The notes: generated by a model from the letters alone, not told the origin. 64,000 bases of DNA from Mytilus edulis (GCF_963676685.1 NC_092354.1:71796001-71860000); one strand, 5' to 3'. Positions 3,590 to 37,591 are shown, counted from the first letter of the stretch. Numbers and translations: made by a program.

Positions 3590-3622
3590 ATTAATTAAAA
3601 AGGGGGAAGGATATTAAAAATC

Positions 3623-13000: not shown

Positions 13001-14076
13001 GAAAATCTGATATAATGGCATGACATTTATATACGAAAAAAAAAAGATATACATAAAAAAAAACCAACTCACTATTAATAATCTAAAGGACTAGTTTACA
13101 AGCCGGTAATCTTTGTTGAGATTTGAAACCATTAGTCTTGTCACTTCATACTTTTCACGCAGTTTTTTTTAATTATTATAAACATTATAATGAGAGTTTT
13201 TTTTCTAAAAGAAACGACTGGGCTGAACATGTCTTTTATAACTGTTCAATACAGTTCGAATGGATACGGTATATAGTTTAAATTACATGTCATTTATCTT
13301 CCAAATGTAAAACGTATCTTTCTAGCTTATCTCGTAGACTTCTTTAACATATTTAACCTAGGTATTTATTTAATTCTTTAATTCCCTTTTTTTCGAAATA
13401 AAAACTAACCATTTAAAATAAAAGGCCAAAAATATGAAGTTGAATGGTGCTAATTGAAAGAATAAAGGCCCCGCGTGCATTATCGGTTAACTGTGAACAT
13501 AGATTACATCCCTAATTTGGCATACAATTGGCACATGGACGTACATGTTTGGCTATACAAAAATGAACCTGATTTCTTTTAAAATACAAATTCTAACATG
13601 ACGTCCTTCAAACGCTTTGAGTACACATCCGTGGTAAAATATGAATATATTGCATTGACTGTGTCGATCGTACTCCCACGTCATATGTTTTTTGTTTTAT
13701 GAATGAAGTACCCGACGTATGATGACGTAATAATTAAAGCATTTTACGGGAAAATACACGCTTCTGATACCGAAAATGATCACTGCAAGGAACGTAAACA
13801 AGCGATGCTGAAATGTGGTATAAGCCCATTTTTTATACATAGAAAACATATAAGAAAATTATCATCAAAATTCATCCAAATCTATCTAAATACGTTATTG
13901 TAAAAAGTTTGGGCATTTCGCTTATTCTGTTCGATCCGTTATTTTACGCCAATCTAAAAGTGCGTTAATTTATGGGAACGGCAAATATTTGCCTCCACCT
14001 AGAGCGCTTCGATTCAAAAGAATTGCCGTATTTGTCCAATTAATTAATCGAACTAATTTATGGGGGAATATATCTA

Positions 14077-14174
14077 GATTTTACCACGGGTTGTCCCTTC
14101 ATGCCGATATTTTATCCCTCGTTATCGCTCAGGGTAATATATTTGTCATAAAGGGCCAAACCGTGGTAAAATCA
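14077..14174. repeat. Imperfect palindrome (GATTTTACCACGG..CCGTGGTAAAATC), possibly the core of a Crypton-like non-autonomous element
   Basis: ~27-bp imperfect arms around a ~45-nt spacer; a third arm copy CCGTGGTAAAAT at ~13629. Lies ~55 bp upstream of the ATG of the plus-strand LDLa gene A. Confidence 0.5.
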
Positions 14175-14227
14175 TGATAATTCCAGCCCGCATGAGGTGG
14201 ACGATTCGTTTTGTAGATTTGAAAGTC

Positions 14228-17200
14228 ATGTGGAATAGTTTGTACATATTGGTTTGCATAAGTTTGACACTTTGGACAGGAAAAGGTATGGATACCAGAG
14301 ATTTTTGTTTGTTTTTGAATCTGTACGTTTACACCACATAAAGATTCTTTCATTAAACATTCAATAAATCCTTTCGTATACCATCAGGTAATGGAGGAAC
14401 ACGCTGATATTTTGTCTTCGTTTAAAGGGGCACTAGCTTAGAGATATATACAAAATATTAGATAGGATTTGTTTTGTTAAATCATTAATAAAAGTGAAAT
14501 AGTGAAATATTATATAGCTTTTAGCAGCCAGCATGGTTAATGGTTCAATTTTGCCACAATAAGCTAAGAAACATTGATGATGAATTATGCACTTGCAAGT
14601 GGCTTATTCGACCTCATTGAATCCGTATCCATATAAACTTCAATGTAACCCCTTAGCTAGAGATGGATATTGCATGCATTGCTCGTGTTCAATTATATAA
14701 AGAAAAATAATGTCAACATTGAAAGTGAATCGAAGGAATCATCTGATTGACTGTTTCGACCCACAAAAAAAATCATTCTTATACAGGAAAACACGATGAT
14801 TAACATATTTTTAAAACTTATCGGCCATAGAAAAATCCAAATGCACGAGTTTGATACTATCTGTTTTCCTTTATATCAATATTTATGTTTATATCGTTAT
14901 TAGGCAATCGGAGGTCTTAGGAATCAACTCGACAGTTAATCATATGACGTCTAGACTAAAATACACACTAAATAAATTAACCGATTATTGTAGACTTTAT
15001 AATTTGAATAAATGTTTTGCATTGTCATAAATCAAATATGAAAATTAGAGTCAAATCGGTAAACATAAATTTGACAAATAGTGCCCCTTTGATTATTTTG
15101 AATATATACGTATTATTTCAACGTTATTCAACTCGAAATAAAAGTCCCTATGATACAGTGATTAGGTTTGGCAATACAATAGTAGTGTAATCCTAAAAGT
15201 TTGACACGCAAGTTGCTTTTAATGATTGTACATTCATTTGTAAAGAATGATTCACAGACAAGATCAAAGGTTACCTTACAGTTCCGTTTCTATACTGCAA
15301 TTATGACAACGTTTAAACATTATTTCTCGACTTTTCAAGGCTTGGGTTGATTTAGAGCTTGAAGTATTGCGTTGAATTACACCGGTTGTTGTAGAATGTA
15401 TAATATATTGTCTTCCACATGTATTTATTGTTAGTGTTGATTTCGTTGCTGCCTCATTCACGTATACCCAATATCATTTTATTCATTTTGATTTGCACTA
15501 AGGTGAGGAATGTCCTACACGTGGTACGACAAAACAGATGCGATGTATGAATCGGAACTGTATACCAATAGAGTGGAAATGTGACGGAGAAAGAGATTGT
15601 GGACCACATGATAATACGGATGAAGCTAATTGTAAACTTTTAGGTGAGTTAATATTACCTACTTGGAACACTTTTCCCTAATCCCGAATTTCTACCTTAG
15701 CAAGATCGTTTAATCAAATGAACCTTCTTAAACTATTGTAAGACAAAACATCAAGAAGCGGTATTTTTGCAGTTAACATTTTGTCATACGAATGTTTGCA
15801 ATTAAATTGAACTCCGAGGCATACATTGTCGTGAGCAACCCATGCTTGAATTGTAATGAGCTTTATTTTGAAAATTCTTTCATACCCATTACTTAACAAT
15901 TCAAATCAGATGAAACAAAATAACAGTTTTAAATTAATTAAACTATGATATCTGGACGAACAGGCACAGTTAGACAACACAATAACATGCATATGTATGC
16001 CAACTGATTAAAACGTTCTGATACATTTCTAATTGTATTGCTTATGGTTAAGTTGTACATGTTAAGAACTAGAACCTGGTTAGTTATTTACCATTCTTTA
16101 GGTTTTTCATCTTGGGATTGATATACAAACGGTTACTAGACAATAGGCTCAATTAAACATATACTAGTGGTAAGTAAATGACAACTCCAGGAAATCACTG
16201 CTGTATTGTGTTTGATACGTGGCAAATAATTATAACTTTCATATATCTCATCCAGATGATAACTGTGCAAAGAATCCCGATAAATATTTTCGGTGTGAGC
16301 TATCTGGTTCCTGTATTCCTAAGCAATGGCGATGTGATGGAAACAGTGACTGTGGACCAGGTGATAGCACAGATGAAAACAGTTGTAGTGAATTATTAGG
16401 TAGGAGTTGGTTCAAATTTGCTTTTTCAGCCTATTGTACCAAAGCTTGACATATGACGCCGGTTCATATTCATATCAGTTCTTACATGAATACTGTCGTT
16501 TGGTGTGTTTGAGCTTTTGATTTTGCCAACGTTTGCAGTTAGGTATTTTTGTTATAAATTTTGATGAACACGACTGTTTCGTTGAAGGTAAGCATGTTAC
16601 TATTGCATCAATACACGTTCTATCGGAAATATGACAGAGAAAATGTACGTATCATGCACTACAGAATCAACTTTTCGTTATCACATATTTCGTAAAATAT
16701 AGAACTGAAATGGGGAATATGTCAAACAGTCAAAAACCCTACAAAATAGCAGATAACAGCCGAAGATTACATATATAAGGAAATGAAACTAAAAATCACA
16801 CAAGATAAACAAATGACAGAGGATTTGTCTTCGGACAGGAGTGAAAATGCTGCGGGGTTAACATGTTTATTGAGATCTCAACCCTCATCCTATATCTCTT
16901 TATTATTTCGATTTTTTTTAACAATAGACACAAGTAGCAGATAAATTATTTAGATAATCAGAAATGATTTCTATATCTTAGTTACCCTGGACTTGTGAGA
17001 TATAACACATCAACATTCATGTTGCTCATATCGAATATAAAAAGTAACTTACAAGTTGGTTTCATTCATAGCGAAAGATGCGTGCGACGCTAAAACCAGC
17101 TTCCGTTGTTCTGTCAGTAATGATTGCATATACAAAGGATGGAAGTGTGATGGTGAATTTGATTGTGGAGCAGACGATACGTCAGATGAGAATGATTGTG

Positions 17201-19231
17201 AAGCAGGTTAGATTCACAACAGCATTTCAAATTCAAAGTTTCATTCTATGTTATCATTTCAAAAGCTTACACCAAAACGTTATGAATGGTTTAAAAGAGG
17301 GACGAAATATACCAAAGGGAGAGTCAAACTCGCAGATAGAAAATAAACTGACAACGCCATTGCTAAAAATAAAAAAGATAAACAGAAAAATAATAGTACA
17401 GAAGACACAACATAGAAAACTGAAGAATAAGCAACACAAACCACACCAAAAACTTGGGGTGATCTCATGTGCTCTGGAAAACGTACTAAACAATGGACTT
17501 TCCACCAATGACGTAATGTTATTTTCATTATGGTGTAAGATAATTGAGAATACCCATATTTTTTATATTATAAAAAATGCGAGTTGAATATGCTTTTTTT
17601 TCTTTCTATCGCAATGATTTTCAACCCTTATCTCCTTTTATAAACCCAAAGGAAAGAAAATACCAAACTATTGTGCGGTTTAAATATTTGAAATTTGAAA
17701 AGATTCTTTTAAAAAGCCGACAGTAGGTATTCACAACTACTTTTCAAATGCGATCTAGAAATATAACGGCAATTGTAAGGTTATTTTTTGCCTTAATGAC
17801 ATTTTGTTAGGGTGACAGAAGAACTGACGATTCTCTGTTTTTAAATCAGTCATCTGTATCTATTGTCCATTCCATATCATTTTGTTAAATTGTCTTCTAT
17901 TTGTGAATAGATACGAACACAATAGAATAGCCTATCGAAAAACATCAGTAGCAGTAGATGACACCCAAACTCTTTTTACACAAAAATTAGTAGATTATAG
18001 TCTTTATATCAGTTCACATGCCTTTTTCAAAATCAATCTACACTTAAGCTTGTTTGAACTAGAAGTATTTTTAACACATACATTTCAAAATCAAGGGTCT
18101 ATTTTGATATTAATAAAATAACAAAAAAATGATATCAACTTTTAACTTTGAATCAGGGATTTTATAAAAATTTTAGCACTTATTTCAGTGAATTTGTAAC
18201 ATCCTAACCTATATTTTGAGGGCTTTTACTACATCCATGAGATTTAAATTTCACTGTTGCATGTTGTATACACCAGTACAAAATCACTTTAACTGTTAGT
18301 GATTTTACAAAACCGCTAATTATTCCAGGGAATTTTACATAATCACTGGTTTTACAAATTCATCGTAAAATATACACGAATCGAACCTATATACTATCTA
18401 ACCCATGCTCTGTAAACTGTTTAATTTAGACTTCGGATAGTTTGGATAAATGTTTTACATTGTTATAAAGAAATATGAGAATTTGAGTCAAATCGGTGAC
18501 CATGAATTTTACAGCTAATGCCCCTTTGATAAATGATTAAAACGTAACACACAAGTGTATACTTGTCTAAACAAAACCATGAATGTATTCACTGTAATTC
18601 GAACAACTCAAACCTGAACACATTCTCAGAAAAGACATGACCAGAGAGAGAGGTCTATCAAGTAATAAAAGCAGGATTTATTCACATTTTCATACATGAC
18701 GAATGTATGTTTCAAGCCAAGAGTTCGACAGCTGTTTTAGATTAAAATGCTCTAGACTAGATTTTTTTTTTTTATTTTCCATTTTTCTTTATCGACTTTT
18801 CTATTATTATTTTTATTGAGTTTCGGTATTTTATTAATAAGCGTTTTTTAATCATTGCTTTTTTGAACAAATTGAATATTTTTGTGATACAATAAGATTA
18901 TTACAAATGTATGAACCAAACAAGAGTGTTTTATAGCAATATATTGCAATACACATTTTGTAAGCCTGTATCAGTTCTCGAGCTAAAGCCTCAAGACCGA
19001 TATATGGGAGTCTCAGGATGATGCCAGGGTCAATATGGAAAAGGGCATGTTGAAATCTATACGTATATGTTATGCACTTGATATATTATTTGTTTTTCAT
19101 TGGTAGATTTTTGCAGTTATAAAGAATATGAATGTAAGTCGGGAGAATGCATTCCTTTAAATTGGACATGTGATAAGGAATACGACTGTTCTGATGGGTC
19201 AGATGAAAGCGAGGCTTTCTGCACACTCTAA
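14228..19231 (+). CDS. Secreted protein: signal peptide plus 4 LDLa modules, ~200 aa, no TM (plus gene A)
   Basis: Exons 14228-14285 ([19 protein letters not shown]), 15503-15643 ([38 protein letters not shown]), 16256-16399 ([42 protein letters not shown]), 17072-17206 ([40 protein letters not shown]), 19107-19231 ([40 protein letters not shown]). All introns GT-AG, phase 1, frame intact; AATAAA at ~19258. Confidence 0.88.
14426..15088. mobile_element. Kolobok-like MITE in intron 1 of LDLa plus gene A
   Basis: TIR AGGGGCACTA..TAGTGCCCCT, flanked by TTAA / TTGA; homologous to 31211-31883. Confidence 0.75.
17292..17482 (-). mobile_element. Penelope-like element 3' fragment (also ~30146-30332)
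   Basis: Reverse complement of the 3' part of the element at 52125-52624. Confidence 0.65.
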
Positions 19232-21305
19232 ATTGACTCTTTTCTTACACATAATTTAATAAAAAGGAATATAATGTATTACATGTATAATTGATATTCA
19301 ATATTGATTTGTGACATAATAGCCTTATTCATCAAGTTTAGTATAGACAATGAAATAAAACTATGATTAAGTGAAACTCATTATTCCTATTGCGAAACAC
19401 CTATATTTAGTGTCCTTAAAAGAACATATCCACTGGGTACGATTGAAATAGCATGCCCTCTGTTCTTCGAAAAACTAGTCCCTGAGTGATATAAGTAGTC
19501 AAAATACATAATAAGCCAAAGTTTGATGTTTTCCTACTAAAGTTCAGTGTTTATATAAAGGCACTCTGGCCTTCTACTTACAAAACGGACAACATGGACA
19601 ACGAATGTAGGAAATGCATGCAATCTATACTTAAAGTACTACACATGTGGTGTTAAATTGACTATACAGTTTTTGATTTGCTGAAAAATATGTAAATTTT
19701 GCTGGAACTTTTTTTGACGATATTCTGTTGAGGTGCATGGCATATGGCTTATGTGTTATACTGCTTGTAACGACATATAACATATGGGCCTCTATCTAGC
19801 AGAGTGACTTTCTGTATCGCTGGTTGAAATCCCAAAAGAAAAAGAAACACCAATAAAAAAAGACGTGTAGTATTTGCCCATGAGACAGCCACCTACGCAT
19901 AGTATTCTTCAACAAACGCGTGCTTATTCATTCTGTTTTGTTCTTGATTCTTGATTGTGTATAGTACCTTACGATAAACTATCGGAATATATAATTGACG
20001 CCCGACAAGCAAAAACGACCCTTATGGCAAAAATTATGAATTATCAGATTTTTTATTAACTAAACAGAAAATACTTATGCCAACTCAATGTAAAAAAATT
20101 GAAAACGATCGGTGAAAAATTAGTTAAGAAATTTCAATTTTGGTAACACATGTGTTCTAACGTAAAATTCAACGTAACGTTGGAATCATACACTTTGACG
20201 TCGATTTAAGTTTGCAGCAATTTACTACTTTACTTTTCTCCTGGTACTTGACAAAATGTAGCCTGATAATCCTTCCTAGCATATGGACGTTTTTGTTTTA
20301 ATATAGATGTTCCTACCTAACACGTGCAGTTCTGGCTGCAGGAATAACTACAGGACGAGCCAACTTATCGAACTATTATAAAGGACGATGAAGAGTATCT
20401 ATTTCTTTTTTTTTTTCTTTTTTTTTTTGTAAAATTAATTTCTGATTTATCATGAGCAACGATGAAATAATGGTACTTTCTGATACCATAGAATAGGTTT
20501 AATCAAAACAGATAAAATTGGTTTCTAATCTCTCCATTGCTAAGTAGTTTCATCGTTCTCTTGCTTACAATATTAACCGACTTATCTTATTGATGATGAT
20601 TTTTGGAAGAATTCTGCCACATGCAATACAGTATCACAGTTTGATCGTCAATATTTTCTTTAGCTTGACAAAATCTACCAAACGTTTAGTATGACCAAAG
20701 GCTTATTTTTCTAATATTGTCCAGTTACATGTAGCACACACAAAGCAAGATAGTCAGTCATATACCGATTTTTTTTCTCCTACAATAACAGAACAATAAA
20801 GACTTTCATTTGTTGGATTTCAAATATAAAAGAATTCTTTTTATTTTGGTAGCGGTTTCAGTGTTATCTTAAATGTAATAAAACAAAAACACACTGAAGT
20901 GTGAACTCCTGATTCTTCCAGGGCACTATCTGTTTTTCATGGGGTTCGTGTTGCTCAATATTTAAATTTCTGTGTTATTTTTTGTTTCACTCGTTTGATT
21001 TTAAGACATGGTCATCTGAGTTTTCTGTTTATGATTTATGATTTCACGTGTGGTGTCTGTTTGTATTTATTTGATATTAAGGATCAACTTGACTAATTTT
21101 TACTCTTATTTGATATTTCTAAGGTTCAGTTTGAATCAATTCACATTGCCAGTTAAAACAGTTTGGCCATTCAAAATCAAATTGACAATAAAATTAGAAA
21201 TGAAATATTGATTAAAGGAGCTTAATGTGGGAATTTGTCGTGGAAGGTCAGTGTTTTGAACATTTAATCTAAAGGAGCGGAATATATTTTGCCAATAGGG
21301 CGTTA

Positions 21306-21541
21306 CAGCCGATTCTATTGAGTGTGAAGGCAAAGGTAATATCTTTGGTTAGCTTGATTCGCAGCTAGCTTAACCGTGAAGTCATTTTTAATTCAGGTAA
21401 ACTACACTTCTTTAAAAGTAGACTCATCCGACATGTAACCAATCTATCTGTCTGTAAGACCAGGCTACTCCGAAAGGATGGTCGTATACCTTAGCTAACC
21501 AAAGATATTACCTTTGCCTACACACTCAATGGAATCGGCTG
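21306..21541. mobile_element. Tc1/mariner-type MITE
   Basis: ~50-bp TIRs CAGCCGATTC(T/C)ATTGAGTGTG(A/T)AGGCAAAGGTAATATCTTTGGTTAGCT, with TA on both sides. Confidence 0.8.
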
Positions 21542-23018
21542 TAATTAATTTAATTGTTTCAAATTTTTCATATCGGGGTCTTTTATAGCCGATGATACGG
21601 TATGTTTTATCTCAATGTTGAAGGCCTATAACTACGACCTGGGACTATTGTAATAGTATAAGAGTCCCATCTACGACACACATCAGAATATATAAATGCA
21701 AATATTATGTGCGGACAGCAAAGCGACCAGACATTTGTCCATTATGTTCAGTGGACACATCTAGTCTATAGATGCTCCGTGTTGAAGACCGTACTTTGAC
21801 CTATAAGGGTTTCGTTTTTAAAATTATGACATGGATGGTGAGTTTTTTCATTGGCACTCATACTCATCTTCTTACATCTACATCCAGTTCCATTTGTCTG
21901 AAATGCTGATACATATGTGTCAAAACCCGACTATTTTGATTCACAAGAAGATAACACAACCTGAGGTTCAGAGTCATGTCTGTTATGAGGTACTGTTTGT
22001 GGTAAACCATGCAGACTAGAATAATTTTTCAAATATTGTACCAATGAAAATGTATTTTTTGGACGTCTATTAAAATTTTGATATTTTCTTGGTATTTCTT
22101 TTACTGTTGATGTGTTTAATCAAAGATTTTAAACGGGACTCTCGAATACTATAGGTTACAGAAATGTATCTCGACAAACTTACCTGTCGTCGAAAGTTTA
22201 TGTAAAATTTTGTTCGCTTTCGCTCTCCGTATCTAGAACGGGATTTATCTACGCCGTTTTATTTTAATTTACCCAATAAATACATATCTTTGCCTTCTTT
22301 GAATAGTTCATTTCTACATGTATTATCTTCAATGTTATCGTTAAATGAGAACTGCAGCTGCAATTTCATTCGTTTCAGATATATTTCTTGCAATAAATAT
22401 ATATGCATGTCAATGTTTACAAAACGAACTAAAATGCACGTAAAAATAAAAATAAAAGTGATTTAAACGAAAAATAACATTTGAAAACTTTATCAAATAA
22501 CATTAAAAATAATAATATATAATAAAAAAACTAACATTAATAGTAAGCTCAAAGTACATAAGATATATCTTGTTGGTCTTCACTCTAATATCGGTTGCTG
22601 AACCTGATTGATTTATATAAAATCGAAAGGTCTTTCGTTAAAAGATTTTAAGTTAGTTGTAATCAATCCAGTTGAAATCTTTTGGCTCTATTGACTAGTC
22701 ATCAATCCAACAAGAACAGTACACAAACCATTACCAAAAACAAAATACCAAAAAAGCAAGTGCTGCTGTAATGGTATACACCAATTGCCAATCGCAAAAT
22801 ATAAATCAATACTTAAAGCAGAACTAGCTATATTTATTTTTTCGTGGTATTATTCACATCATGTATAATGGTATGAATATGATAATGCTATAATTATCCA
22901 AATAATATATAAGAACATTTACTAATACAAACTTAAAAAAATGCAAGTAGTTGTACTTCCAAATCAATGTATTTTAAGACAGTGTTCTTCAATGATATAA
23001 GTATTCATTAAAGCATCT

Positions 23019-25981
23019 TCATGAATTTGCGCATTCTTCTTCATCTGACTGATCACCAGTCCCGCAATCAAACTCTTCATCACATTTCCATTTCAATATT
23101 ATACACCTTCCACTTGCTGTACACCGGAAGTGATTATCTGGATCAAGATCACAGTAGTCTGCAAATATGAAAAATAAAACTATAAAATATAACATACTTA
23201 ATGCTATAACGATTTATGGATAAAGGACTTAATGGTCGGCAATGATCATACCAAAACAAACAAGTTCCCACAGCGTTCAACTACCAACACTGCGGGTGGT
23301 ATGAGTGCCAATGAGACAACTCTCCATCCAAATAACAATTTATAAAAGTAAACCAGTTTGCTATACCATGACTATCGATGTTGCAGTAACGTATTCGACT
23401 TGGTACAATAATTAGAATCATAATTGCGGTCATCCAGTAATAAACTTAAAATTTATAAATATTTTTTAGAAATGAAAATAGATAACATGAATAAGTTACA
23501 AAACGTTTGTACCCGAAACGAATTTTGGGATTAAGATTCAACAGGAATGTTTCACAAAGTTTAAACCAATTATATGTAACTAAATAAATGCTCCAGAGGG
23601 TAAGCAGATCCTGCTCTACCTGTGTCACAGATCGCACTGTACATGTTCAAACAAACAAAATCCCAGTAATGAATCGATTTCGTTAATGTCACAGTCGGGA
23701 GATGATAACAATTTCGAGTAGATAAAAGAGCACACAATGATACATGAGCTATGATAGATTCACACTTTCGTTTAAAAAATCAAGTTTTTATATTTGAGTA
23801 ATATTTTATTTGTTAACACTATTAAACTAAAGATATATTGTTAACTTATACCTTACCTTTGCCTTCACATTGGATCTCGTCAGAGTTATCAGAGCAGTCT
23901 GGAACTCCATCACACAACCATCTTTGAGGAATGCACCTCCCACATTCACACCTAAATCCGGAGCATTGACCTATAGATGATAAATGGATGAATAATGTTT
24001 GCCATTGCTTTAATATAGAAAAACATGTTTTATAAAGTAACTACATTATTACTAAACTTTCTTATTTTAAACACAATCTCAAAATATTTAATACTAATGA
24101 AATTTCGAATACGAATTATATAAACCATCTCTGTGGTTGATCCAAGGTATCGGGTCGGGCAATTGGTTCCGGGAGTTAGATCAACCTTTTATTTTAAAAT
24201 CAATTTTGGATGGGGACATTTGGTTTTAGAATTGCGGGATTTGGCACTGGATCTTTTATGTTTGGTAATACATATCTATCAGTTCCCCGTAGAGTATATT
24301 TTAGACAAGTTTCCTTTTGACCAAAAACAATAGTCTGTAACTAACATTACAATTTAAACTAAATGCAGAAGATAGTAGGAAAGAACATTATAGATGTCAA
24401 AGGATTGGTACATGAACCGGCTAATGTATTTGGTCTACACAATCAAGAATAAAGTTCCTCTAGAAAGTTTAAAGAAGCAACTAAATAATCAGTACGCACG
24501 ATATACCATCCCTACTAAATTATATAGAGTATATCATTATTAATAAACAAAATTACCACAGAGATGCCTATTGTCCTCGTCTGAAGTATCATCTAAGCCG
24601 CAGTCTTTATCACCGTCACATCGCCAACTCGATGGTATACATCTACAGTTTGTGCATTGAAAATATCCACTTGGACATGATGTACATATCGTTTCGTCTG
24701 TTATGTCTGCAAACATATACATACAGTTGTTTTATTTTAAATTCTTACCTCTGCTGCCCCATCAACTTTCGAACATATATTCAATATATCAGTGATAAAA
24801 ATTATTAAGAGGAACTCAAAAACAAATATGTCAATAGACAGAAAGAGACAGAAAAACAAAGAATATGTCAATAGACAGAAAGAGACAGAAGAACGAACAT
24901 AAAAAAACTGTTCACAGAAAACTAAAGATTGAGACGCAAGGACCCCATCCAAGATGAGGGACAACATTAATGTTCATATTATCATGATCACAGAAAACTA
25001 AAGATTGAGACGCAAGGACCCCATCAATGATGAGGGACAACATCAATGTTCATATTATCATGATCACGGAAAACTAAAGATTCAGACGCAAGGACCCCAT
25101 CCAAGATGAGGGACAACATCAATGTTCATTTTATCATGATCACGGAAAACTAGAAATTCAGACGCAAGGACCCCATCCAAGATGAGGGACAACATCAATG
25201 TTCATATTATCATGATTACAGAAAACTAAAGATTAGGACACAAGGACCCCATCCAAGATGAGGGACAACATCAATGTTCATCATGATCACAGAAAACCAA
25301 CATTAGTTGATAATGACAATGAAAAGGAAACAGGGCTCTGGTAAAAGAACATATGCATGGTAATCAGGTAATCCATATTGGTCATCAAAATCATGTCGGC
25401 ATCACCAGTAGTGTATAACCATGTATAATGTATGTATAATGAGCCGAGCTCTATTTGTCCTTGATCAAATGACGTTGGTTATAAATCTTCTAAAACAATA
25501 CTGATTTTGCAGTGCATCACATCATCTGAATTCCTTATTGCCAAAGATATCAAGTCATACACGAATATTTGAACATCGTAATGTCCGACGGGGTATATAA
25601 TCTTGCACAGGCACATTCAGATGTTTACATTTTAAGACGTCAGGATTAAATGAGGCCGAAATCCATCTGCAAAATTAAAGTTCCAATTAAAGTTAACCCT
25701 CTGTTTTTTCTAGTTCAGATGGAAAGTAAATGTCACAAGTTTTTGCTCAGCTGAGTTTATTCGGGTACATGGTCGGCCTTTATAATTTGCATCATTTAAA
25801 AGAAGTGGGCTGCATGATTTGTTCAAGCCCAAGTCTTATGAGTAACGCTTGCTGTTATTGTGTAGGTTTTTTCTTACGAAATACGAATTAAAGTTAAGAA
25901 TCACTTACCTTGCATCACAACTGAACAATGAAGCGGTATGCCAAAATGGAATACTAAAATGAAAATCGAATGATAGTTCAT
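23019..25981 (-). CDS. Secreted protein: signal peptide plus 3 LDLa modules, ~158 aa, no TM (minus gene A)
   Basis: Exons 25981-25909 ([30 protein letters not shown] donor), 24706-24557 ([44 protein letters not shown]), 23970-23857 ([34 protein letters not shown]), 23158-23019 ([45 protein letters not shown]). All introns GT-AG, phase 1. Confidence 0.88.
24913..25297. repeat. 76-bp minisatellite, 5 copies, in intron 1 of minus gene A
   Basis: Unit CACAGAAAACTAAAGATTGAGACGCAAGGACCCCATCCAAGATGAGGGACAACATCAATGTTCATATTATCATGAT at 24913, 24989, 25065, 25141 and 25217; a single copy in the paralogue (~35667-35751). Confidence 0.9.
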
Positions 25982-27313
25982 TTCTCATTTACTTTATAAC
26001 TATGTGTAGTTAAAAACAGTATCAAAACTGTCTCCATGACAAATTCATTGTTTATTATCACATGTTGGTTACTATTTAGCTTGGCGTACAATATTAATCA
26101 ATGTTTAATCTGAAAAAGCTACTTTCAGAATCCAAATTAAAACGTTGAAATATTTTTTCACCTTATCATATGTAAATATTATTCACTTAAATGGGAGAAA
26201 ATGTCAATTCTAACATTGTTATTGACTATTCTTCTAATGTACATTTAGTTACATCCATATTATTTATATAATGGTAGTAGGTAATAATAACAATATAAAT
26301 AAGTGGAAGTGGTTTGACATTTCATGTTGAAGAATCTTTGTTTAGAATTATTGCTAAAATGTCAATTATTGCCGTCCCAATATTAGATACAGCAAACAAT
26401 TTCAAAACCGATTAAACTTTAACATGTCTAAAAAAATTAATGGTGATAGACATGAAAGAGACAATGAAGATACGTAGGAGATAATCAAATTCGTTCTTAT
26501 GGTGTACTGTTATACCACTGTATGAACTGATTTTGACATAAATACATACTTTTTTCTGCAAGATAGCAATGTGCATTTAATATATTAAAGATGTAAATTA
26601 TAAAATTAAGAAAATAATAATTGTTATATGCATATTCCAAAATATACAATACTTAACGTTAAACACGCGTCACGTCGAAATGAAATAGTCGACGAAGTCT
26701 GATATATCAAAGTTGATATTGGTATTCAAAATATTTTGTTGACATGCGCTAAAATAAACTTTCAAAAAATGATAGTATCGCCCTTTACCAAAATTTTGTT
26801 GTTTTGTCATTGATAAAGCATGGTGGAAAATGAGCAAGACGGAAAAATAGTGAAATACAGTGTGCCTCTATCTGCAGATACATAAGATTGTAAGGCTTTA
26901 TAAAGAATTTAGGACTAAACTCCTGGTCTTTGAAGTTTTTGTTTTTTAACATTGTTGAGCTGGAGTATGTCATGGTATTACTTTACTTTGAGCATTTTCC
27001 TTTTATATATTGATTAGTATGTAATGCAAATTTCAAATGTCGTGGAGTAAATATTCAGCAATAAATTCTCCTTAATGCCCGTTATCAAAATCTAAAATTG
27101 TGATTTTATTCGAATTATTGCTCATCAAGACTAATGATGCATAGACAGAATTGATAGGATAGATGATTTGTATCATTTAACCTTTATGAAAATTGTATGA
27201 GATGATCTGAATTGGTCATTTAACAACAAAATAGAGTAATTGAAATTTGACTTTAATGTTAGTATTTTATCATATCAATGCGCTGGATAACTCGTTGGAC
27301 AGATTCGAAAATC

Positions 27314-30300
27314 ATGTTGAATATTTGGTACCTATTGGTTTGCATTGGTTTGCAGTTTGGGATAGGAAAAGGTATAGATACTTAATAAGGTTTTATTTCT
27401 GTTTTTGAACTTTCACTTATACTTCATGTTATATTTAACAAGTGTTTAATATATACATCCTAAAGGTCATTCTCCTGTCGTTTACCATACAGTAGGGAAA
27501 GAAGACATTGATAATTTTCTCGATGTTAAATATAATAAGTATATGAACTTATCGTTTCAATGAGAATCATTTAAAAATGAAATATAGTTTTACGGGTTGG
27601 CAAAGTAATCGATGGGTAGTACCGACATGTTTACACGATAGTTGCTATATACATTTTAATGCATATTATAAACAAATTAAACATTTTCGAAGTTAACCTA
27701 CAAGTTCAGTTATTGTACTGAAAAACGTATTTCAATGACTCAGGTAAAAGTAGAGCTTAAAAATACAAAGACTGACACTTGTTGTTGGAAAATGTATATT
27801 CACTTCTTGATGTTTTTATTAGTTGGAGTCTATTTTTTTTGCTATGACGTATATCCATTATCCTTTTATTCATTTTGATTTGCACTAAGGTGAGGAATGT
27901 CCTACACGTGGTACGACAAAACAGATGCGATGTAAGAATGGTAACTGTATACCAATAGAGTGGAAATGTGACGGAGAACGAGACTGTGGACCACATGATA
28001 ATACGGATGAAGCTAATTGTAAACTTTTAGGTGAGTTAATATAACCTACTTGGAACACTTTTCCCTAATCCCGAATTTCTAGCTTAGTAAGATCGTTTAA
28101 TCAAATGAACCTACTAAAACTATTGTAAGACAAAACATCGAGAAGGTTACCTTACAGTTCAGTTTCTATACTGCAATTATGACAACGTTTAAACATTATT
28201 TCTCGACTTTTCAAGGCTCGGGTTGATTTAGAGCTTGAAATATTGCGTTGAATTACACCTGTTGTTGTAGAATGTATATTGTCTTCCATATGTATTTATT
28301 GTTAGTGTTGATTTCGTTGCTGTCTCATTCACGTATACCCTATATCATTTAATCATTTTGATTTGCACTAAGGTGAGGAATGTCCTACACGTGGTACGAC
28401 AAAACAGATGCGATGTAAGAATCGTAACTGTATACCAATAGAGTGGACATGTGACGGAGAACGAGACTGTGGACCACATGATAATACGGATGAAGCAAAT
28501 TGTAAACTTTTAGGTGAGTTAATATTACCTATTTGGAACACTTTTCCCTAATCCGAATTTCTAGCTTAGTAAGATCATTTAATCAAACTATTGTTAGACA
28601 AAACATCAAGAAGCGGTATTTTTGCAGTTAACATTTTGTCATACGAATGTTTGCAATTAAATTGAACTCCGAGTCATACATTGTCGTGAGCAACCCAAGC
28701 TTGAATTGTAATGAGCTTTATTTTGAAAATTCTTTCATACCCATTACTTAACAATTCAAATCAGATGAAACAAAATAACAGTTTTGAATTAATTAAACCA
28801 TGGTATCCGGACGAACAGGCACAGTAAAACAACACAATAACATGCATATGTATGCCGACTGATTAAAACGTTCTGATACATTTCTAATTGTATTGCTTAT
28901 GGTTAAGTTGTACATGTTAAGAACTAGAACCTGGTTAGTTATTTGCCATTCTTTAGGTTTTTTATCTTGGGATTGATATACAAACGGTTACTAGACAATA
29001 GGCTCAATAAAACATATACTAGTTGTAAGTAAATGTCAACTCCAGGAAATCACTGCTGTATTATGTTTGATACGTGGCACATACTTATAACTTTCATATA
29101 TCTCATCCAGATGATAACTGTGCAAAGAATCCCGGTAGATATTTTCGGTGTGAGCTATCTGGTTCCTGTATTCCTAAGCAATGGCGATGTGATGGAAACA
29201 GTGACTGTGGACCAGGTGATAGCACAGATGAAAACAGTTGTAGTGAATTATTAGGTAGGAGTTGGTTCAAATTTGCTCTTTCAGCCTATTGTACCAAAGC
29301 TTGACATATGACGCCGATTCATATGCATATCAGTTCTTACATAAATACTGTCGTTTGGTGTGTTTGAGCTTTTGATTTTGCCAACTTTGGCAGTTAGGTA
29401 TTTTTGTTATAAATTTTGATGAACACGACTGTTTCGTTGAAGGTAAGCATGTTACTATTGCATCAATACACGTTCGATCGGAAATATGACAGAGAAAATG
29501 TACGTATCATGCACTACGGAATCAACTTTTCGTAACCAAATATTACGTAAAATATAGAGATGAAATGGGGAATATGTCAAACAGTCAAAAACCCTACAAA
29601 ATAGCAGATAACAGCCGAAGATTACATATATAAGGAAATGAAACTAAAAATCACACAAGATAAACAAATGACAGAGGATTTGGCTTCGGACAGGAGTGAA
29701 AATGCTGCGGGGTTAACATGTTTATTGAGATCTCAACCCTCACCCTATACCTCTTTATAATTTCGGATTTTTTTTAACAATAGACACAAGTAGCTGATAA
29801 ATTATTTTGATAATCAGAAATGATTTCTATATCTTAGTTACCCTGGACTTGTGAGATATAACACATCAACATTCATGTTGCTCATATCGAATATAAAAAG
29901 TAACTTACAAGTTGGTTTCATTCATAGCGAAAGATGCGTGCGACGCTAAAACCAGCTTCCGTTGTTCTGTCAGTAATGATTGCATATACAAAGGATGGAA
30001 GTGTGATGGTGAATTTGATTGTGGAGCAGACGATACGTCAGATGAGAATGATTGTGATGCAGGTTAGATTCACAACAGCATTTCAAATTCAAAGTTTCAT
30101 TCTATGTTATCATTTCAAAAGTATACAAAACGTTATGAATGATTTAAAAGAGGGACGAAATATACCAAAGGGAGAGTCAAACTCATAGATAGAAAATAAA
30201 CTGACAACGCCATTGCTAAAAATAAAAAAGACAAACAGAAAAATAATAGTACAGAAGACACAACATAGAAAACTGAAGAATAAGCAACACAAACCACCAA

Positions 30301-32577
30301 AATCTTGGGGGGATTTCATGTGCTCCGGAAAACGTACTAAACAATGGACTTTCCACCAATGACGTAACGTTATTTTCATCATGGTGTAGGATCATTGAGA
30401 ATACCCATATTTTTTATATTATAAAAAATGCGAGTTGAATTTTCAACCCTTATCTCCTTTTATAAACCTAAAGGAAAGAAAATACCAAACTATTGTGTGG
30501 TTTAAATATTTGAAATTTGAAAAGATTCTTTTAAAAAGCTGACAGTAGTTATTCACAACTACTTTTCAAATGCGATCTAGAAATATAACGGCAATTGTAA
30601 GGTTATTTTTTGCCTTAATGACATTTTTTTTTAGGGTGACAGAAGAACTGACGATTCTCTGTTTTTAAATCAGTCATCTGTATCTATTGTCCATTCCATA
30701 TCAGTTTGACAAGTAGTTAAATTGTCTTCCATTTGTGAATAGATACGAACACAATAGAATAGACTATCGAAAAACATCAGTAGCAATAGATGACACCCAA
30801 ACTCTTTTTACACAAAAATTAGTAGATTATAGTCTTTATATCAGTTCATATGCCTATTTCAAAATCAATTTACACTTAAGCTTGTTTGAACTAAAAGTAT
30901 TTTTTAACACATACATTTCAAAAGCAAGGGTCCATTTTGATATTAATAAAATAACAAAAAAAATTGATATCAACTTTTAACTTTGAATCAGGGATTTTAT
31001 AAAATTTTTAGCACTTATTTCAGTGAATTTATAACATCCTAACCTATTTGAGGGCTTTTACTACATCCATGAGATTTAAATTTCACTGTTGTATACACCA
31101 GTACAAAATCACTATAACTGTTAGTGATTTTACAAAACCGCTAATTATTCCAGGGAATTTTACATAATCACTGGTTTACAAATTCATCGTAAAATGTACA
31201 CATATGTTAAAGGGCCACTAGCTACGAGATATATACAAAATCTAAAGTGTTTTTTTTTGTTCAATCAATAATGAATGTGAAATAGTGAAATAACAATTCG
31301 CTTTTTGCAGTCAAAAAGGTTCAATCTTGTCAAATTACGCTAAGAAACATTGATAATTAGTTATTACCTTGCAAGTGAATGAGTCAACCTCTTTAAATCC
31401 GTATTCATGTGAAATTCAATTTAACCCCTAGCTAGAGATTGACAACGCATGCATTGTACGTGTACTGATTATTTAAAGATAAAGAATGTCATCAATGAAA
31501 GTGAAACTACAGTAATTCATTTGATTACTAGTTCGATGCACATAAAATCATTCTTATACGGTTAAAAGCAATGAGAAACATCAATTTTTAATATATAAAA
31601 TAAAATCAAACAGACCTATAAAAATCCAATTCCACGTGCTGGTTTAATATCTTTATTTAGGTTTACATCGCCTATATGGTCATTAGAGGACAAATCGATA
31701 GTTAATTAGATGGCGTCTGGACTAAAAAACACACGAAACGAACCTATATAGTATCTACCCCATGCTCTGTACACTGTTTATTTTAGACTTCGGATAGTTT
31801 TGATAAATGTTTTACATAGTTATAAATGAAATATGAGAATTTGAGTCAAATCGGTGACCATGAATTTGACAGTTAGTGCCCCTTTAATAAATTATTAAAA
31901 CGTAACACACAAGTTTATATTCGTCTAAACAAAACCATGAATGTATTCGCTGTAATTCGAATAACTCAAATCTGAACACATTCTCAGAAAAGACATGACC
32001 AGTGAGAGGTCTATCAAGTAATAAAAGCAGGATTTATTCACATGTTTATACATGACGAATGTATGTTTCAAGCCAAGAGTTCGCCAGCTGTTTTAAATTA
32101 AAATGCTCTAGACTAAAAGTTTTTTTTATTTTCCATTTTTCTTAAACGACTTTTCTATTTTTATTTTTATTGAGTTTCGGTATTTTATAAATATGCGTTT
32201 TTTAATCATTGCTTTTTTGAACAAATTGAATATTTTTTTGATACAATAAGATTATTACAAATGTATGAACCAAACAAGAGTGTTTTATAGCAATATATTG
32301 CAATAAACATTTTGTTAGCCTGTATCAGTTAAAACCTGAAGGCCGATATATGGGAGTCTCAGGATGATACCAGGGTCAATATGGAAAAGGGCATGTTGAA
32401 ATCTATACGTATATGTTATGCACTTGATATATTATTTGTTTTTCATTGGTAGATTTTTGCAGTTATAAAGAATATGAATGTAAGTCTGGAGAATGCATTC
32501 CTTTAAATTGGACATGTGATAAGGAATACGACTGTTCTGATGGGTCAGATGAAAGCAAGGCTATCTGCACACTCTAA
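27314..32577 (+). CDS. Secreted protein: signal peptide plus 5 LDLa modules (module 1 duplicated), ~247 aa (plus gene B)
   Basis: Exons 27314-27371 ([19 protein letters not shown]), 27890-28030, 28373-28513, 29111-29254, 29928-30062, 32453-32577 (..DESKAICTL*). All introns GT-AG, phase 1, no stops. Confidence 0.85.
31211..31883. mobile_element. Kolobok-like MITE
   Basis: TIR AGGG(C/G)CACTA..TAGTGCCCCT with a perfect TTAA target duplication (31207-31210 and 31884-31887). Confidence 0.8.
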
Positions 32578-33894
32578 ATTGACTCTTTTCTTACACATAA
32601 TTTAATAAAAAGGAATATAATGTAGTACATGTATAATTGATATTCAATATTGATTTGTGACATAATAGCCTTATTCATCAAGTTTAGTATAGACAATGAA
32701 ATAAAACTATGATTAAGTGAAACTCATTATTCCCATTGCGAAACACCTATATTTAGTGTCCTTAAAAGAACATATCCACTTGGTACGATTGAAAAAGCAT
32801 GCCCTCTGTTCTTCGAAAAACTAGTCCCTGAGTGATATAAGTAGTCAAAATACATAATAAGCGCCAAAGTTTGATGCTTTCCTACTAAAGTTCAGTGTTT
32901 ATCTACAGGCAATCTGGCCTTCTACTTACAAAACGAACAACATGACAACGAATGTAGTAAATGCATGCAATCTATACTTGAAGTACTACACATGTGGTGT
33001 TAAATTGACTATACATTTTTTGATTTGCTGAAAAATATGTAATTTTGCTGGATCTGTTTTTGTCGATATTCTGTGGAGGTGCATGGCATATGGTTTATGT
33101 GTTATACTGCTTGTAACGACACATAACATATGGGCCTCTATCTAGCAGAGTGACTTTCTGTATCGCTGGTTGAAACACCAAAAGAAAAAGAAACACCAAT
33201 AAAAAAAGACGTGTAGTATTTGCCCGTAAGACAGCCACCTACAGGCACATAGTATTCTTCAACAAACGCGTGCTTATTCATTCTGTTTTGTTCTTGATTC
33301 TTGATTGTGTATAGTACCTTACGGTAAACTATCGGAATATATATAATATATAACAAAAAACTAATATTAATAGTAAGCTCAAAGTACATAGTATGTTCTA
33401 GATATATCTTGTTGGTCTGCACTCTAATATCGGTTGTTGAACCTGATTGATTTATATAAAATCGAAAGGTCTTTCGTTAAAAGATTTCGAGTTGTAATCA
33501 ATCCAGTTGAAATCTTTTGGGTCTAATGACTAGTCATCAATCCAACAAGAACAGTACACAAACCATTACCAAAAACAAAATACAAAAAAAAAAGCAAGTG
33601 CTGCTGTAATGGTATTAGATATAATTTCTTTTGCCGTTATGTTTAGTTCTTATACACCAATTGTTAATCGCAAAACATAAATCAATACTTAAAGCAGAAC
33701 TAGCTATATTTATTTTTTCGTGGTATTATTCACATCATGTATAATGGTATGAATATGATAATGCTATAATTATCCAAATAATATATTAGAACATTTACTA
33801 ATACAAACTTAAAAAAAGGCAAGTAGTTGTACTTCCAAAGAAATGTATTTTATGACAGTGTTCTTCAATGATATAAGTATTCATTAAAGCATCT

Positions 33895-36437
33895 TCATGA
33901 ATTTGAGCATCCTTCTTCATCTGACTGATCACCAGCCCCGCAATCTAACTCTCCATCACATTTCCATTTCAATATTATACACCTTCCACTTGCTGTACAC
34001 CGGAAGTGATTATCTGGATCAAGATCACAGTAGTCTGCAAATATGAAAAATAAAACTATAAAATATAACATACTTAATGCTATAACGATTTATGGATAAA
34101 GGACTTAATGGTCGGTAATGATCATACCAAAAAGCAAGTTCCCACAGTGTTCAACTACCAACACTGCGGGTGGTATGAGTGCCAATGAGACAACTCTCCA
34201 TCCAAATAACAATTTATAAAAGTAAACCAGTTTGCTATACCATGACTATCGATGTTGCAGTAACGTATTCGACTTGGTACAATAATTAGAATCATAATTG
34301 CGGTCATCCAGTAATAAACATAAAATTTATAAATATTTTTTAGAAATGAAAATAGATAACATGAATAAGTTACAAAACGTTAGTACCTGAAACGAATTTC
34401 GGGATTAAGATTCAACAGGAATGTTTCACAAAGTTTAAACCAATTATATGTAACTAAATAAATGCTCCAGAGGGTAAGCAGATCCTGCTCTACCTGTGTC
34501 ACAGATCGCACTGTACATGTTCAAACAAACAAAATCGCAGTAATGAATCGCTTTCGTTAATGTCACAGTCAGGAGATGATAACAATTTCGAGTAGATAAA
34601 AGAGCACACAATGATACATGAGCTATGATAGATTCACACTTTCGTTTAAAACATCAAGTTTTTATATTTGAGTAATATTTTATTTGTTAACACTATAAAT
34701 CTAAAGATATATTGTTAACTTGTACCTTACCTTTGCCTTCACATTGGATCTCGTCAGAGTTATCAGAGCAGTCTGGAACTCCATCACACAACCATCTTTG
34801 AGGAATGCACCTCCCACATTCACACCTAAATCCGGAGCATTGACCTATAGATGATAAATTGATGAATAATGTATGTCATTGCTATAATATGGATAAACAT
34901 GGATTATAAAGTAACTACACTATTACTAAACTTTCTTATTTTATACAAAATCTCAAAATATTTCATACTAATGAAATTTAGAATACGAATTTTGTAAACC
35001 ATCTCTGTGGTGGATCCAAGATATCGGGTCAAGCAATTGGTTCTTCAATCAATTTTGGATTGGGACACTCGTTTTTAAAATTGCTGGATTTGGCACTGGA
35101 TCTTTTATGTTTGGTAATACATATCTATCAGTTCATCGTAGAGTATATTTTAAACAAGTTTCCTTTTGACAAAAAAAATAGTCTGTAACTAACATTACAA
35201 TTTAAACCAAATGCAGAAGATAGTAGATAGAACATTATAGATGTAAAAGGATCGGTTTAAACAAACAACTAAATAATCAGTACGCACGATATGCCATCCC
35301 TACTACATTATATAGAATAAATCATTATTAATGAACAAAATTACCACAGAGATGTCTATTGTCCTCGTCTGAAGTATCATCTAAGCCGCAGTCTTTATCA
35401 CCGTCACATCTCCAACTCGATGGTATACATCTACAGTTTTTGCATTGAAAATACCCACTTGGACATGATGTACATATAGTTTCGTCTGTTATGTCTGCAA
35501 ACATATACATATACATACATTTTTTTTTTAAATTCTGACCTCTGCTGTCCAACAGCTTTCGAACATTTATTCAATATATTAGTGATACAAATTATTAAGA
35601 GGAACACAAAAACAAATATGCCAATAGACAGAAAGAGACAGAAAAACAAACATAAACAAAAGTGTTCAAAGAAAACTACAGATTAAGACGCAAGGACCCC
35701 ATCCAAGATGAGGGACAACATAAATGTTCATATTATCATGATCACGGAAAACAAACATTCGTTGATACTTACAATGAAAAGGGAACAGGACTCTGGTAAA
35801 AGAACATATGCATGGTTATCAGGTAATCCATATTGGTCATCAAAATCATGTTGGTATCACCAGTAGTGTATAACCATATATAATGTATGTATAATGAGCC
35901 GAGCTCTATATTGTCCTTGTTCAAGTGAAGTTGGTTATAAATCTTCTAAAACAATACTGATTTTGCAGTGCATCACATCATCTGAATTCCTTATTGCCAA
36001 AGATATCAACTCATACACGAAGATTTGATCATCGTAATGTCCGACGGGGTATATAGTCTTGCACAGGCACATTCAGATGTTTACATTTTAAGACGTCAGG
36101 ATTGAATGAGGCAGAAATCCATCTGCAAAATTAAACTTTCAATTAAAGTTACCCCTCCGTTTTTTCTAGTTCAGATGGAAAGTAAATGTCACAAGTTTTT
36201 GATCAGTTGAGTTTATTCGGGTACATGGTCGGCCTTTATAATTTGCATCAATTAAAAGAAGTGGGCTGCATGATTTGTTCAAGCCCAAGTCTTATGAGTA
36301 ACGCTTGCTATTATTGTTTAGGTTTTTTCTGACGAAATACGAATTAAAGTTAAGAATCACTTACCTTGCACCACAACTGAACAATGAAGCGGTATGCCAA
36401 AATGGAATACTAAAATGAAAATCGAATGATAGTTCAT
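33895..36437 (-). CDS. Secreted protein: signal peptide plus 3 LDLa modules, ~158 aa (minus gene B)
   Basis: Exons 36437-36365, 35494-35345, 34844-34731, 34034-33895 (..[22 protein letters not shown]). Same exon lengths and phases as minus gene A. Confidence 0.88.
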
Positions 36438-37591
36438 TTCTCATATACTTTGTAACTACGTGTAGTTAAAAACAGTATCAAAACTTTCTCCATGACAAAT
36501 TCATTGTTTATTATCACATGCTGGTTACTAGTTAGCTTGGCGTACACTATTAATCAATGTTTAATTTGAAAAGCTACTTTCAGAATTCAAAATAAAACGT
36601 TGAATTATTTGTTCACCTTATCATATGTAAATGTTATTCACTTAAATGGGAGAAAATGTCAATTCTAACATTGTTATTGACTATTCTTCTAATGTACATT
36701 TAGTAACATCCATATTATTAATATAATGGTAGTAGGTAATAATAACAATATAAATATGTGGAAGTGGTTTGACATTTCATGTTGAAGAATCTTTGTTTAG
36801 AATTATTGCTAAAATGTCAATTATTGCCGTCCCAATATTAGATACAGCAAACAATTTCAAAACCCATTAAACTTTAACATGTTTAAAATAATTGATGACC
36901 TGAAAGAGACAATGAAGATAGCGTTTATAGCATCAGTGATAGTTGAGGTAATATGGGTCGCTGTTTATAAAAAAAATAAAAAAATTGATTATTATGTTCA
37001 ATATTACTTTGATATATAACTAGTATATTACTTTTATATATTATTGTTATAGAAAAAAAACCATCCTCAATTAATGTTGGATGCACTCGGTTATTCTAAT
37101 AAATTTGTATAATATATGCCATTTATCAATAAAATGTTATCATGATTGGAAATCCTTTTGGTTATCCTAAAGTAACTGTATACTGTGTTTTGGTCTTAAG
37201 AGTGTCCATAACTTAACACTAACTCTGTTATTGTCTCAACCAAACATTCAATTCTTTAAGTGGACTGTTTTGAACACATATTTTATACCACAATTTAGTC
37301 AGCATGAAATGAATTTGTTTGTAATTGACAATTATAATTCATTTGATTACTTTGTTTAAATATTTGTGCAACTTCATGCAAATGTAAACACTATTTTGAT
37401 TATTTCTCAATCAAAGCAAAAATGCGTCAACTACTAAAAGCAAGTTTTTTCCCAAATGAAGCAAGTTAACTATATCTTTTCGTTTATCATGTTTATAGTC
37501 TTTTCATGAAAAGAATGCTAAATGTGAACAAAGATGTATTAAAAAAAAGTAATGGCCATTTGTAATCAGATAATAAACTTGTGACATTGTT

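Follow-up and report, generated by a model that had tools for sequence, protein, structure and literature searches.

A conserved pair of LDLa-only genes duplicated as a cassette in the mussel Mytilus edulis

A 64,000-nucleotide stretch of the Mytilus edulis genome (GCF_963676685.1, NC_092354.1:71796001-71860000; hereafter the window, with positions counted from its first letter) contains four genes, A1, B1, A2 and B2, for short proteins made up of LDLa modules and an N-terminal hydrophobic stretch. The four genes are of two types, A and B, which are old paralogues and have been duplicated as a cassette. A and B are a real, conserved pair of free-standing LDLa-only genes, recently duplicated, and B has a rare, cysteine-rich variant of the module. 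An initial annotation of the window, made from its sequence, had described these genes, and its structural description is largely right; its 'four-member expanding decoy family' is overstated. We favour, tentatively, a role as soluble clamps for lysine-presenting proteins in a secretion or matrix. LDLa modules have been studied almost only within receptors and mosaic proteins, and a conserved gene pair whose only products are free strings of them offers a natural mini-receptor of a size suited to direct ligand tests. However, interest is limited by the recurrence of the LDLa-only layout in predictions from many animals and by the presence of a scallop analogue in a published secretome.

Gene models and relatives in Mytilus

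A six-frame scan of the window found 15 LDLa motifs, all between 15,503 and 35,494, and a strict form of the motif gave 15 matches in the window and none in 100 shuffles. All 15 LDLa exons exceed the PF00057 gathering score (29.6-48.9 bits against a cut-off of 24.1). In all four genes each module corresponds to one AG..GT exon with phase-1 borders, and the four spliced models contain no internal stop and end 6-7 residues past the last D-E, as had been claimed. A1 extends on the plus strand from 14,228 or 14,192 (two in-frame ATGs) to 19,231, B1 on the minus strand from 25,981 to 23,019, A2 on the plus strand from 27,314 or 27,278 (two candidate ATGs) to 32,577, and B2 on the minus strand from 36,437 to 33,895. 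The order A1(+) B1(-) A2(+) B2(-) thus forms the two convergent pairs originally described. The sequence AATAAA is found 27 nt past the A stops and 181 nt past the B stops. The starts of B1 and A2 are head-to-head and 1,297 bases apart (25981-27278), and a shared promoter is possible.

Three of the four window genes match M. edulis RefSeq proteins letter for letter, namely B1 (P0018), B2 (P0017) and a third that matches only without its duplicated exon. The latter is A2, as RefSeq P0015 is A2 minus exon 28373-28513, starting at the upstream ATG, 27278; the ATG at 14192 in A1 corresponds to this start. The RefSeq records possibly derive from this same assembly, and they are taken as support for the gene models, not for the sequence.

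The proteins closest to the four models come from Mytilus. The database models for the same genes or their orthologues (e.g. XP_071140761.1, XP_071140763.1, XP_071139198.1, XP_063438603.1, CAC5391812.1 and CAC5391813.1) are named 'VLDLR-like', 'LRP1/CD91', 'LRP1B', 'LRP4-like' or 'sortilin-related receptor-like'. These automatic names are misleading, as the models have no receptor domains, and the present analysis corrects them. An already characterised orthologue had been considered at the outset, but a full-text search for six accessions of the A/B family returned no papers, and no paper on the family was found in the literature searched. Supplements and most subscription journals lay outside that literature, and the proteins are possibly listed in mussel proteome tables under their automatic names. 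The gene pair is apparently unstudied.

The layout and the end point recur in orthologues from four other Mytilus species, except for a truncated A model in M. californianus, which runs into the intron after module 3. The stop is at the same position in the A of four species and the B of five, if the M. trossulus paralogue B' is included. The accessions of the A and B models are next to each other in M. edulis, M. galloprovincialis, M. trossulus and M. coruscus; in M. californianus the two models lie on a contig of equal length. Across Mytilus, mature proteins are 82-91 % identical for A and 85-94 % for B. A and B share 50-52 % identity over ~130 residues, with B modules 1-3 aligned on A modules 2-4, and the best matches to unrelated receptors are 42-51 % identical. 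In a module tree, which is rough (33 columns), A module 4 falls with B module 3 (support 95/88). However, 35 of the 73 inner branches of this tree are open, and no parent receptor can be named from it.

A profile search of 1.84 billion representatives found that 148 of the 150 best matches are longer than 300 aa, the two short ones being P0058 and P0236. P0236 comprises four contiguous modules on a 791-bp contig, with 53 % identity to A, 64 % to B and an A-like end, which suggests that it may be a spliced transcript of a relative. Searches with exon-sized homologues yielded 18 and 2 candidates; their sensitivity was low, and absence from further mytilids or bivalves does not follow from them.

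Cassette duplication, module loss and constraint

Self-alignment of the window revealed that 15,267-26,472 is repeated as 28,143-36,920, in blocks of 86-95 % identity when gaps are counted, and that the flanking genes are outside the duplication. Six intron pairs are 92-98 % identical between the cassettes (gaps excluded) and the synonymous divergence (dS) of the copies is 0.04-0.05. This duplication of 11-12 kb is recent. The A intron 1 and A signal exons are only 79 % alike between the copies, and A2 is a chimera, in which a second type of 5' end is fused to a copy of the A1 body. The A2-type 5' end is also found in M. galloprovincialis (P0133/P0135). Because of the fusion, the module 1 exon is present twice in A2, and because both copies retain intact splice sites, a five-module product is possible, though RefSeq includes no such model. 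The five-module gene of the initial annotation therefore stands as far as the splice sites and frame of the second module-1 exon go, but this exon was doubled by the chimera and is skipped in P0015. Likewise, the 'four intact genes' are stop-free as DNA-level models, but represent two duplicated types, and no spliced reads were seen in the RNA runs described below. The copy number of a tandem array in B intron 1 differs between B1 and B2.

The second cassette might instead be an uncollapsed haplotype, in a genome with one A and one B; this concerns copy number only, and we judge it to be unlikely. The intron identity and dS given above are not far above allelic divergence in mussels, which are very heterozygous, and our searches of the RefSeq sets of M. 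trossulus and M. galloprovincialis recovered one A and one B from each. However, a clean chimeric junction with a 3-base overlap joins a different type of signal exon to the copied body, the flanking genes are not repeated, and models for two A-like and two B-like genes (VDI11440-VDI11444) share one contig of 28 kb in M. galloprovincialis.

The A gene of M. trossulus, M. galloprovincialis and M. coruscus encodes five distinct modules. Module 3 is missing from both A copies in the window, although its last eight codons and the donor survive in each (Table 1), and the loss is therefore older than the duplication. The net history of A here is the loss of one module plus a chimeric exon doubling. 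An AG that precedes the relic donor by 45 bases (16543-16587, and the corresponding stretch up to 29442, both on the plus strand) could define an in-frame mini-exon for the final part of module 3, including one cysteine; this mini-exon is not part of P0015. In P0024 (VDI11443.1), the second A-like model of M. galloprovincialis, the third module looks frameshifted, which suggests that module 3 of A decays in more than one lineage. A single locus thus displays evolution at the level of modules, namely the loss of an exon, the doubling of another in a chimera, the duplication of a cassette, and cysteines gained and lost.

In the mature regions, the ratio of non-synonymous to synonymous change (dN/dS) between the window copies is 0.34-0.44. 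Though the numbers are small (4-5 synonymous and 7 non-synonymous changes per pair), the mature regions appear to be under constraint and not in an arms race, and positive selection on them was rejected. An arms race would be recognized by many divergent copies and an excess of amino acid change; only two types are present in the window, and their mature dN/dS is that given above. For the A signal-peptide exon, dN/dS is 1.5 (3.5 synonymous and 19.5 non-synonymous changes), which we attribute to an earlier divergence of paralogues in a region where constraint is loose. A faster rate in cassette 1 was also considered, but the outgroup comparison gave 9 versus 4 derived changes, too few to claim it.

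Protein features and possible role

All four models start with a hydrophobic stretch (N-terminal 11-mers score 2.3-2.55 on the Kyte-Doolittle scale), probably a cleaved signal peptide with export of the protein. No hydrophobic 19-mer occurs past residue 25 in the four models (maximum Kyte-Doolittle score -0.05 to 0.31), nor, by hydropathy, does a hydrophobic C-terminal stretch suited to a membrane or glycosylphosphatidylinositol anchor. The mature isoelectric points are 4.1-4.4. EGF repeats and YWTD propellers were not found, the models and their orthologues carrying PF00057 only. The gene models, Pfam matches, hydropathy and Mytilus orthologues thus agree with the original description of free-standing LDLa-only genes with a likely signal peptide and no EGF, YWTD, transmembrane or anchor segment. 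Splicing into a membrane or larger receptor gene had been raised as a possibility, but no receptor exons shared with a full-length receptor gene were found in the window, no candidate exon in 19,232-23,000 passed the filter on either strand, no in-frame phase-1 donor follows the module in the last exons, and the stops are conserved across species.

The Trp and the acidic Ca2+-cage residues (Trp, Asp, Asp, Asp, Asp-Glu) are invariant in all 15 modules, and the LDLa modules of A and B are predicted to bind Ca2+. The ligand-site pattern Trp-Asp-Asp/Glu-Asp, which comes from LDLR-RAP structures, is complete in three of the four A modules and two of the three B modules, and the pattern of each module is identical across Mytilus species. 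In both the A and B lineages it is the middle module that lacks the site, and this is the module that A has lost here.

Canonical six-cysteine spacing is seen in 11 of the 15 modules. The four exceptions are the B module-1 exons, in both of which the sixth cysteine is absent from its usual place and two extra cysteines are present, and the B module-2 exons, with one extra. B modules 1 and 2 have one cysteine in the beta-hairpin and one located three residues before the first canonical cysteine. A module with extra cysteines was found in 9 of 9 B-type proteins but in only 1 of the 2,665 other modules examined, the first module (residues ~17-52) of the LRP2-like protein P0142 of the gastropod Gigantopelta aegis. 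P0142 shares both extra cysteines of B module 1, which represents either convergence or a hint at origin. Assuming that Cys19 is within the signal peptide, the B proteins of M. californianus and M. coruscus have 22 cysteines in the presumed mature chain, two of them at the junction of modules 1 and 2. The first junction cysteine is absent from B of M. edulis and M. galloprovincialis and the second from the paralogue P0137/P0058, leaving 21 in each, and two independent losses would have left a free thiol in the 21-cysteine forms.

An AlphaFold model of B2 from a 44-row alignment has a mean predicted local distance difference test (pLDDT) score of 71 and a predicted template modelling score of 0.39 (with an 8-row alignment, pLDDT was 36 and the model unusable). 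It is consistent with separately folded modules on a flexible string, and its fold matches are LDLR-family repeats.

Our preferred reading, plausible though tentative, is that A and B, as old linked paralogues likely secreted as strings of three to five LDLa modules, may work in an exocrine secretion or matrix as soluble, multivalent clamps on proteins that present lysines. In the LDLR family, an LDLa module cages Ca2+ and its ligand site grips lysine. By this chemistry the signal peptide would direct export of A and B, each module would cage one Ca2+, modules with the Trp-Asp-Asp/Glu-Asp site would grip a lysine of the ligand, two to four such sites on a flexible string would provide avidity, and the site-less middle module would be a spacer. 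The extra cysteines of B may add a fourth disulfide to modules 1 and 2, and the leftover thiol of the 21-cysteine form may dimerise B or tether it to a matrix protein. The best guess for the site of action is a gland secretion such as that of the foot and byssus, or mucus, where A and B could hold or bridge basic partners. If these partners include lysine-rich adhesive proteins, the pair would be relevant to the ways in which mussels store wet adhesives and put them to use.

A more elaborate form of this proposal appears quite improbable. It holds that A and B belong to the secretome of the foot or mucus and constitute a class of soluble LDLa clamps not yet described from bivalves, that the eight-cysteine LDLa and leftover thiol of B, the latter produced twice independently, would dimerise it or tether it covalently, and that binding of lysine-rich adhesive or antimicrobial proteins would be switched by Ca2+ and pH, so that these partners stay soluble within the gland and are released or bridged when secreted.

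The best lead for the site of action is CF4213.5 of the scallop Chlamys farreri, which excerpts of the source describe as a Cys-rich protein of 122 aa and 13 kDa with a signal peptide (0.97), 3 exons and two LDLa modules (PMC9168380). That source classes it among the structural byssus-related proteins, with values that climb from ~0.5-0.6 to 137-199 in each of the three regions of the foot at the onset of byssus secretion (PMC9168380). It shares with A and B the signal peptide, the LDLa-only layout, one exon per module, the richness in cysteine and an origin in a byssus-forming bivalve, but has two modules in place of 3-5, and induction in the foot was measured for CF4213.5 only.

Several points weigh against the clamp reading. 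CF4213.5 is an analogue, likened to A and B by description and layout. According to excerpts of PMC11464482, the LDLa gene enriched in the M. galloprovincialis mantle encodes a different protein, VDI74324.1, and VDI1144x is absent from the mantle supplement. A soluble lysine-binder could equally be a decoy or a carrier. The RNA data, with which the initial annotation had proposed to confirm junctions and polyadenylation sites, add to these points. Read mapping used 4 of 24 runs and covered 13,900-33,800, with B2 outside, and 90-94 % of the raw reads diverge from the stretch (intronic repeats). In two raw runs of unlabelled tissue, of which 6 % and 18 % were read, 10 of the 16 exon-bearing bins have a depth of <=0.03 and the remaining six overlap repeats, and no exon-linking joint was present among the 15 of 52 joints inspected. 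Run X2 gave a 152-nt contig over the B1 last exon and 3' region at a depth of 2.6, but also pieces of intron, and it was not counted as expression. High, ubiquitous expression is argued against, and the result is compatible with tissue- or stage-restricted use.

The initial annotation had proposed an expanding family of pathogen traps, and free LDLa strings could indeed be an immune decoy that soaks up viruses or toxins docking on mussel LDLR/LRP repeats. The intact ligand sites, the solved structures of alphaviruses with VLDLR repeats among the matches and the fibrinogen-domain gene that starts 2 kb beyond B2 are in its favour, and a mimic of a conserved receptor could itself stay conserved. 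However, there are only two paralogue types, A has lost a module, mature dN/dS is below 0.5, orthologues are 82-94 % identical across Mytilus and neither protein is closer to one particular receptor, the receptor matches following from the fold alone. A decoy is accordingly doubtful, and an expanding family is not supported.

It also seems rather unlikely that A and B are carriers or signalling modulators in body fluids or eggs, which would bind lipoprotein or vitellogenin, protease-inhibitor complexes or a growth-factor-type ligand and compete with LRP-family receptors or deliver to them. Such molecules are the usual LDLa ligands, LDLa-only secreted splice forms such as LGR7-truncate antagonise receptors, and the conservation of A and B suits a host ligand. 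However, A and B have no uptake tail, the extra or unpaired cysteines of B are left unaccounted for, and the tolerated module loss and cassette duplication would be less expected of a dosage-sensitive modulator.

An origin of the models as pieces of some larger receptor gene, or as silent relics, is highly improbable: it would fit the lack of exon reads in the two RNA runs, the M. californianus A model and the many matches that pass a crude 'signal peptide + LDLa only' filter (36 of 112, several from vertebrate receptor genes), but not the conserved stops, the last exons with no onward donor and with polyadenylation signals following, the dN/dS below 0.5, or the opposing strands and fibrinogen-domain gene that box the genes in.

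Compared with known systems, A and B share with the repeats of LDLR, VLDLR, ApoER2, LRP1 and LRP2, their best sequence and fold matches, the module and its Ca2+-cage and ligand-site residues. They differ from LDLR, VLDLR and LRP in having no EGF repeats, YWTD propeller, membrane segment or NPxY tail, in an identity of 42-51 % and in the extra cysteines of B. Judged by these residues, A and B would work like the ligand-binding arm of the LDLR family, yet they are not members of it. CD320, Tva and LDLRAD3 also have few LDLa modules and little else outside the cell, but are membrane-anchored, whereas A and B have no anchor by hydropathy. Soluble LDLR, secreted ApoER2 and LGR7-truncate are shed or spliced receptor forms whose free LDLa modules compete for ligand; these come from receptor genes, whereas A and B, judged from the window, are genes in their own right, each closed by a stop exon of its own.

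Among other short LDLa-rich predictions, P0252 of the freshwater mussel Sinanodonta (seven modules, no evident anchor as judged by eye), Styela P0055, Aplysia P0110 and Nematostella P0096 resemble A and B in having a hydrophobic N-terminus, LDLa strings and no evident membrane segment. The ESM Atlas cluster nearest to A has 632 members, mostly Mollusca, and a 169-aa representative (PF00057 99 %, score 0.92), and is a lead only. Some of these predictions, unlike A and B, have extra tails, and for those placed in the module tree no kinship with A and B emerged. The 36 matches that passed the filter, which asks for a hydrophobic N-terminus and no membrane segment, include 3 Mytilus genes, and many of the 36 are probably truncated receptor models.

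Secreted LDLa proteins of unexplained role are described in excerpts of work on arthropod venoms (centipede LDLA proteins and the Nasonia 'LDL receptor-like venom protein'; PMC4379518, PMC5577568, PMC4776022, PMC3153221). They are like A and B in being secreted LDLa proteins, theirs being of gland origin, but belong to another phylum and context; an LDLa-only layout is not seen in those excerpts, and the remipede forms have a protease domain. In molluscs, excerpts report LDLa repeats for one shell protein of Perna (PMC6641155) and for a multidomain protein of limpet mucus (PMC7333891).

Feature map and neighbouring sequence

The exons, relics and duplication units are listed in Table 1.

Table 1. 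Features of the A/B locus, with positions counted from the first letter of the window
Feature	Position	Strand	Basis or remark
A1 exon 1, signal-peptide exon, 'alpha' type	14192..14285	+	In-frame ATGs 14192, 14228; 81 % identity to M. trossulus P0023 N-terminus
A1 LDLa module 1 exon, phase 1-1	15503..15643	+	Spliced model, Pfam
A1 LDLa module 2 exon	16256..16399	+	Asn in place of acidic ligand-site residue kept by most orthologues
A1 relic of ancestral module-3 exon	16563..16587	+	Last 8 codons (DEHDCFVE) and donor; tblastn with P0023 module 3, 9/10 residues, E 2e-5
A1 LDLa exon, ancestral module 4	17072..17206	+	Spliced model, Pfam, orthologue comparison
A1 last exon, ancestral module 5, with stop	19107..19231	+	AATAAA 27 nt downstream; Pfam
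B1 last exon, module 3, with stop	23019..23158	-	AATAAA 181 nt downstream; Pfam; B1 = P0018
B1 module 2 exon, extra Cys in beta-hairpin	23857..23970	-	Pfam
B1 module 1 exon	24557..24706	-	Two extra Cys; canonical sixth Cys replaced, Cys three residues later
B1 signal-peptide exon	25909..25981	-	Head-to-head with A2, 1.3 kb apart
A2 exon 1, signal-peptide exon, 'beta' type	27278..27371	+	79 % identity to that of A1; resembles M. galloprovincialis P0133/P0135
A2 module 1 exon, first copy	27890..28030	+	Used by RefSeq P0015; Pfam
A2 chimeric junction, 3-base AAG overlap	28143..28145	.	Left, intron after module 1; right, A1-type intron 1 restart
A2 module 1 exon, second copy	28373..28513	+	Splice sites and frame intact; skipped by RefSeq P0015
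A2 module 2 exon	29111..29254	+	Spliced model, Pfam
A2 relic of lost module-3 exon (second relic)	29418..29442	+	Sequence comparison with P0023
A2 exon, ancestral module 4	29928..30062	+	Spliced model, Pfam
A2 last exon, ancestral module 5, with stop	32453..32577	+	Spliced model, Pfam
B2 last exon, module 3, with stop	33895..34034	-	Spliced model; B2 = P0017
B2 module 2 exon (extra Cys)	34731..34844	-	Spliced model, Pfam
B2 module 1 exon (extra Cys)	35345..35494	-	Spliced model, Pfam
B2 signal-peptide exon	36365..36437	-	Spliced model
Duplication unit copy 1: A body, B gene, B upstream region	15267..26472	.	Self-alignment; ~2.5 kb (19994-22511) without counterpart in copy 2
Duplication unit copy 2	28143..36920	.	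Self-alignment; blocks 86-95 % including gaps

Secreted VMO1 and fibrinogen-domain neighbours had been cited as context for a defence role. Both are present, but VMO1 is represented by a lone last exon (11111-11341, minus strand; Pfam VOMI 98-167 of 167), with no upstream VMO1 exons found anywhere in the window. It is either an orphan or part of a gene with a very long intron spanning the LDLa cluster. Fibrinogen-domain genes are very numerous in Mytilus. The neighbourhood argument is therefore weak. The fibrinogen-domain gene (38481-53507, plus strand) has a signal and coiled-coil exon at 38481 and Fibrinogen_C exons near 50.9-51.6 kb and 53.25-53.5 kb, and an exon near 42.8 kb looks degenerate. 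One of its introns contains an element resembling a long interspersed nuclear element (~45.9-50.9 kb) with an internal 1.8-kb duplication (47243-49054 / 49059-50887).

Within the 2.5-kb stretch between A1 and B1 that is absent from copy 2, an inverted-repeat element at 21296-21545 resembles, by eye, a miniature inverted-repeat transposable element, and its end mimics a short exon by chance. Translations of 3888-6048, 57427-58718, 59.0-61.8 kb and 62062-63198 contain reverse transcriptase-like open reading frames and coiled-coil, ORF1-like frames, representing several retroelements of the type without long terminal repeats. Tandem repeat arrays are located at 761-2194, 2646-3868, 24909-25300 and 55177-56377.

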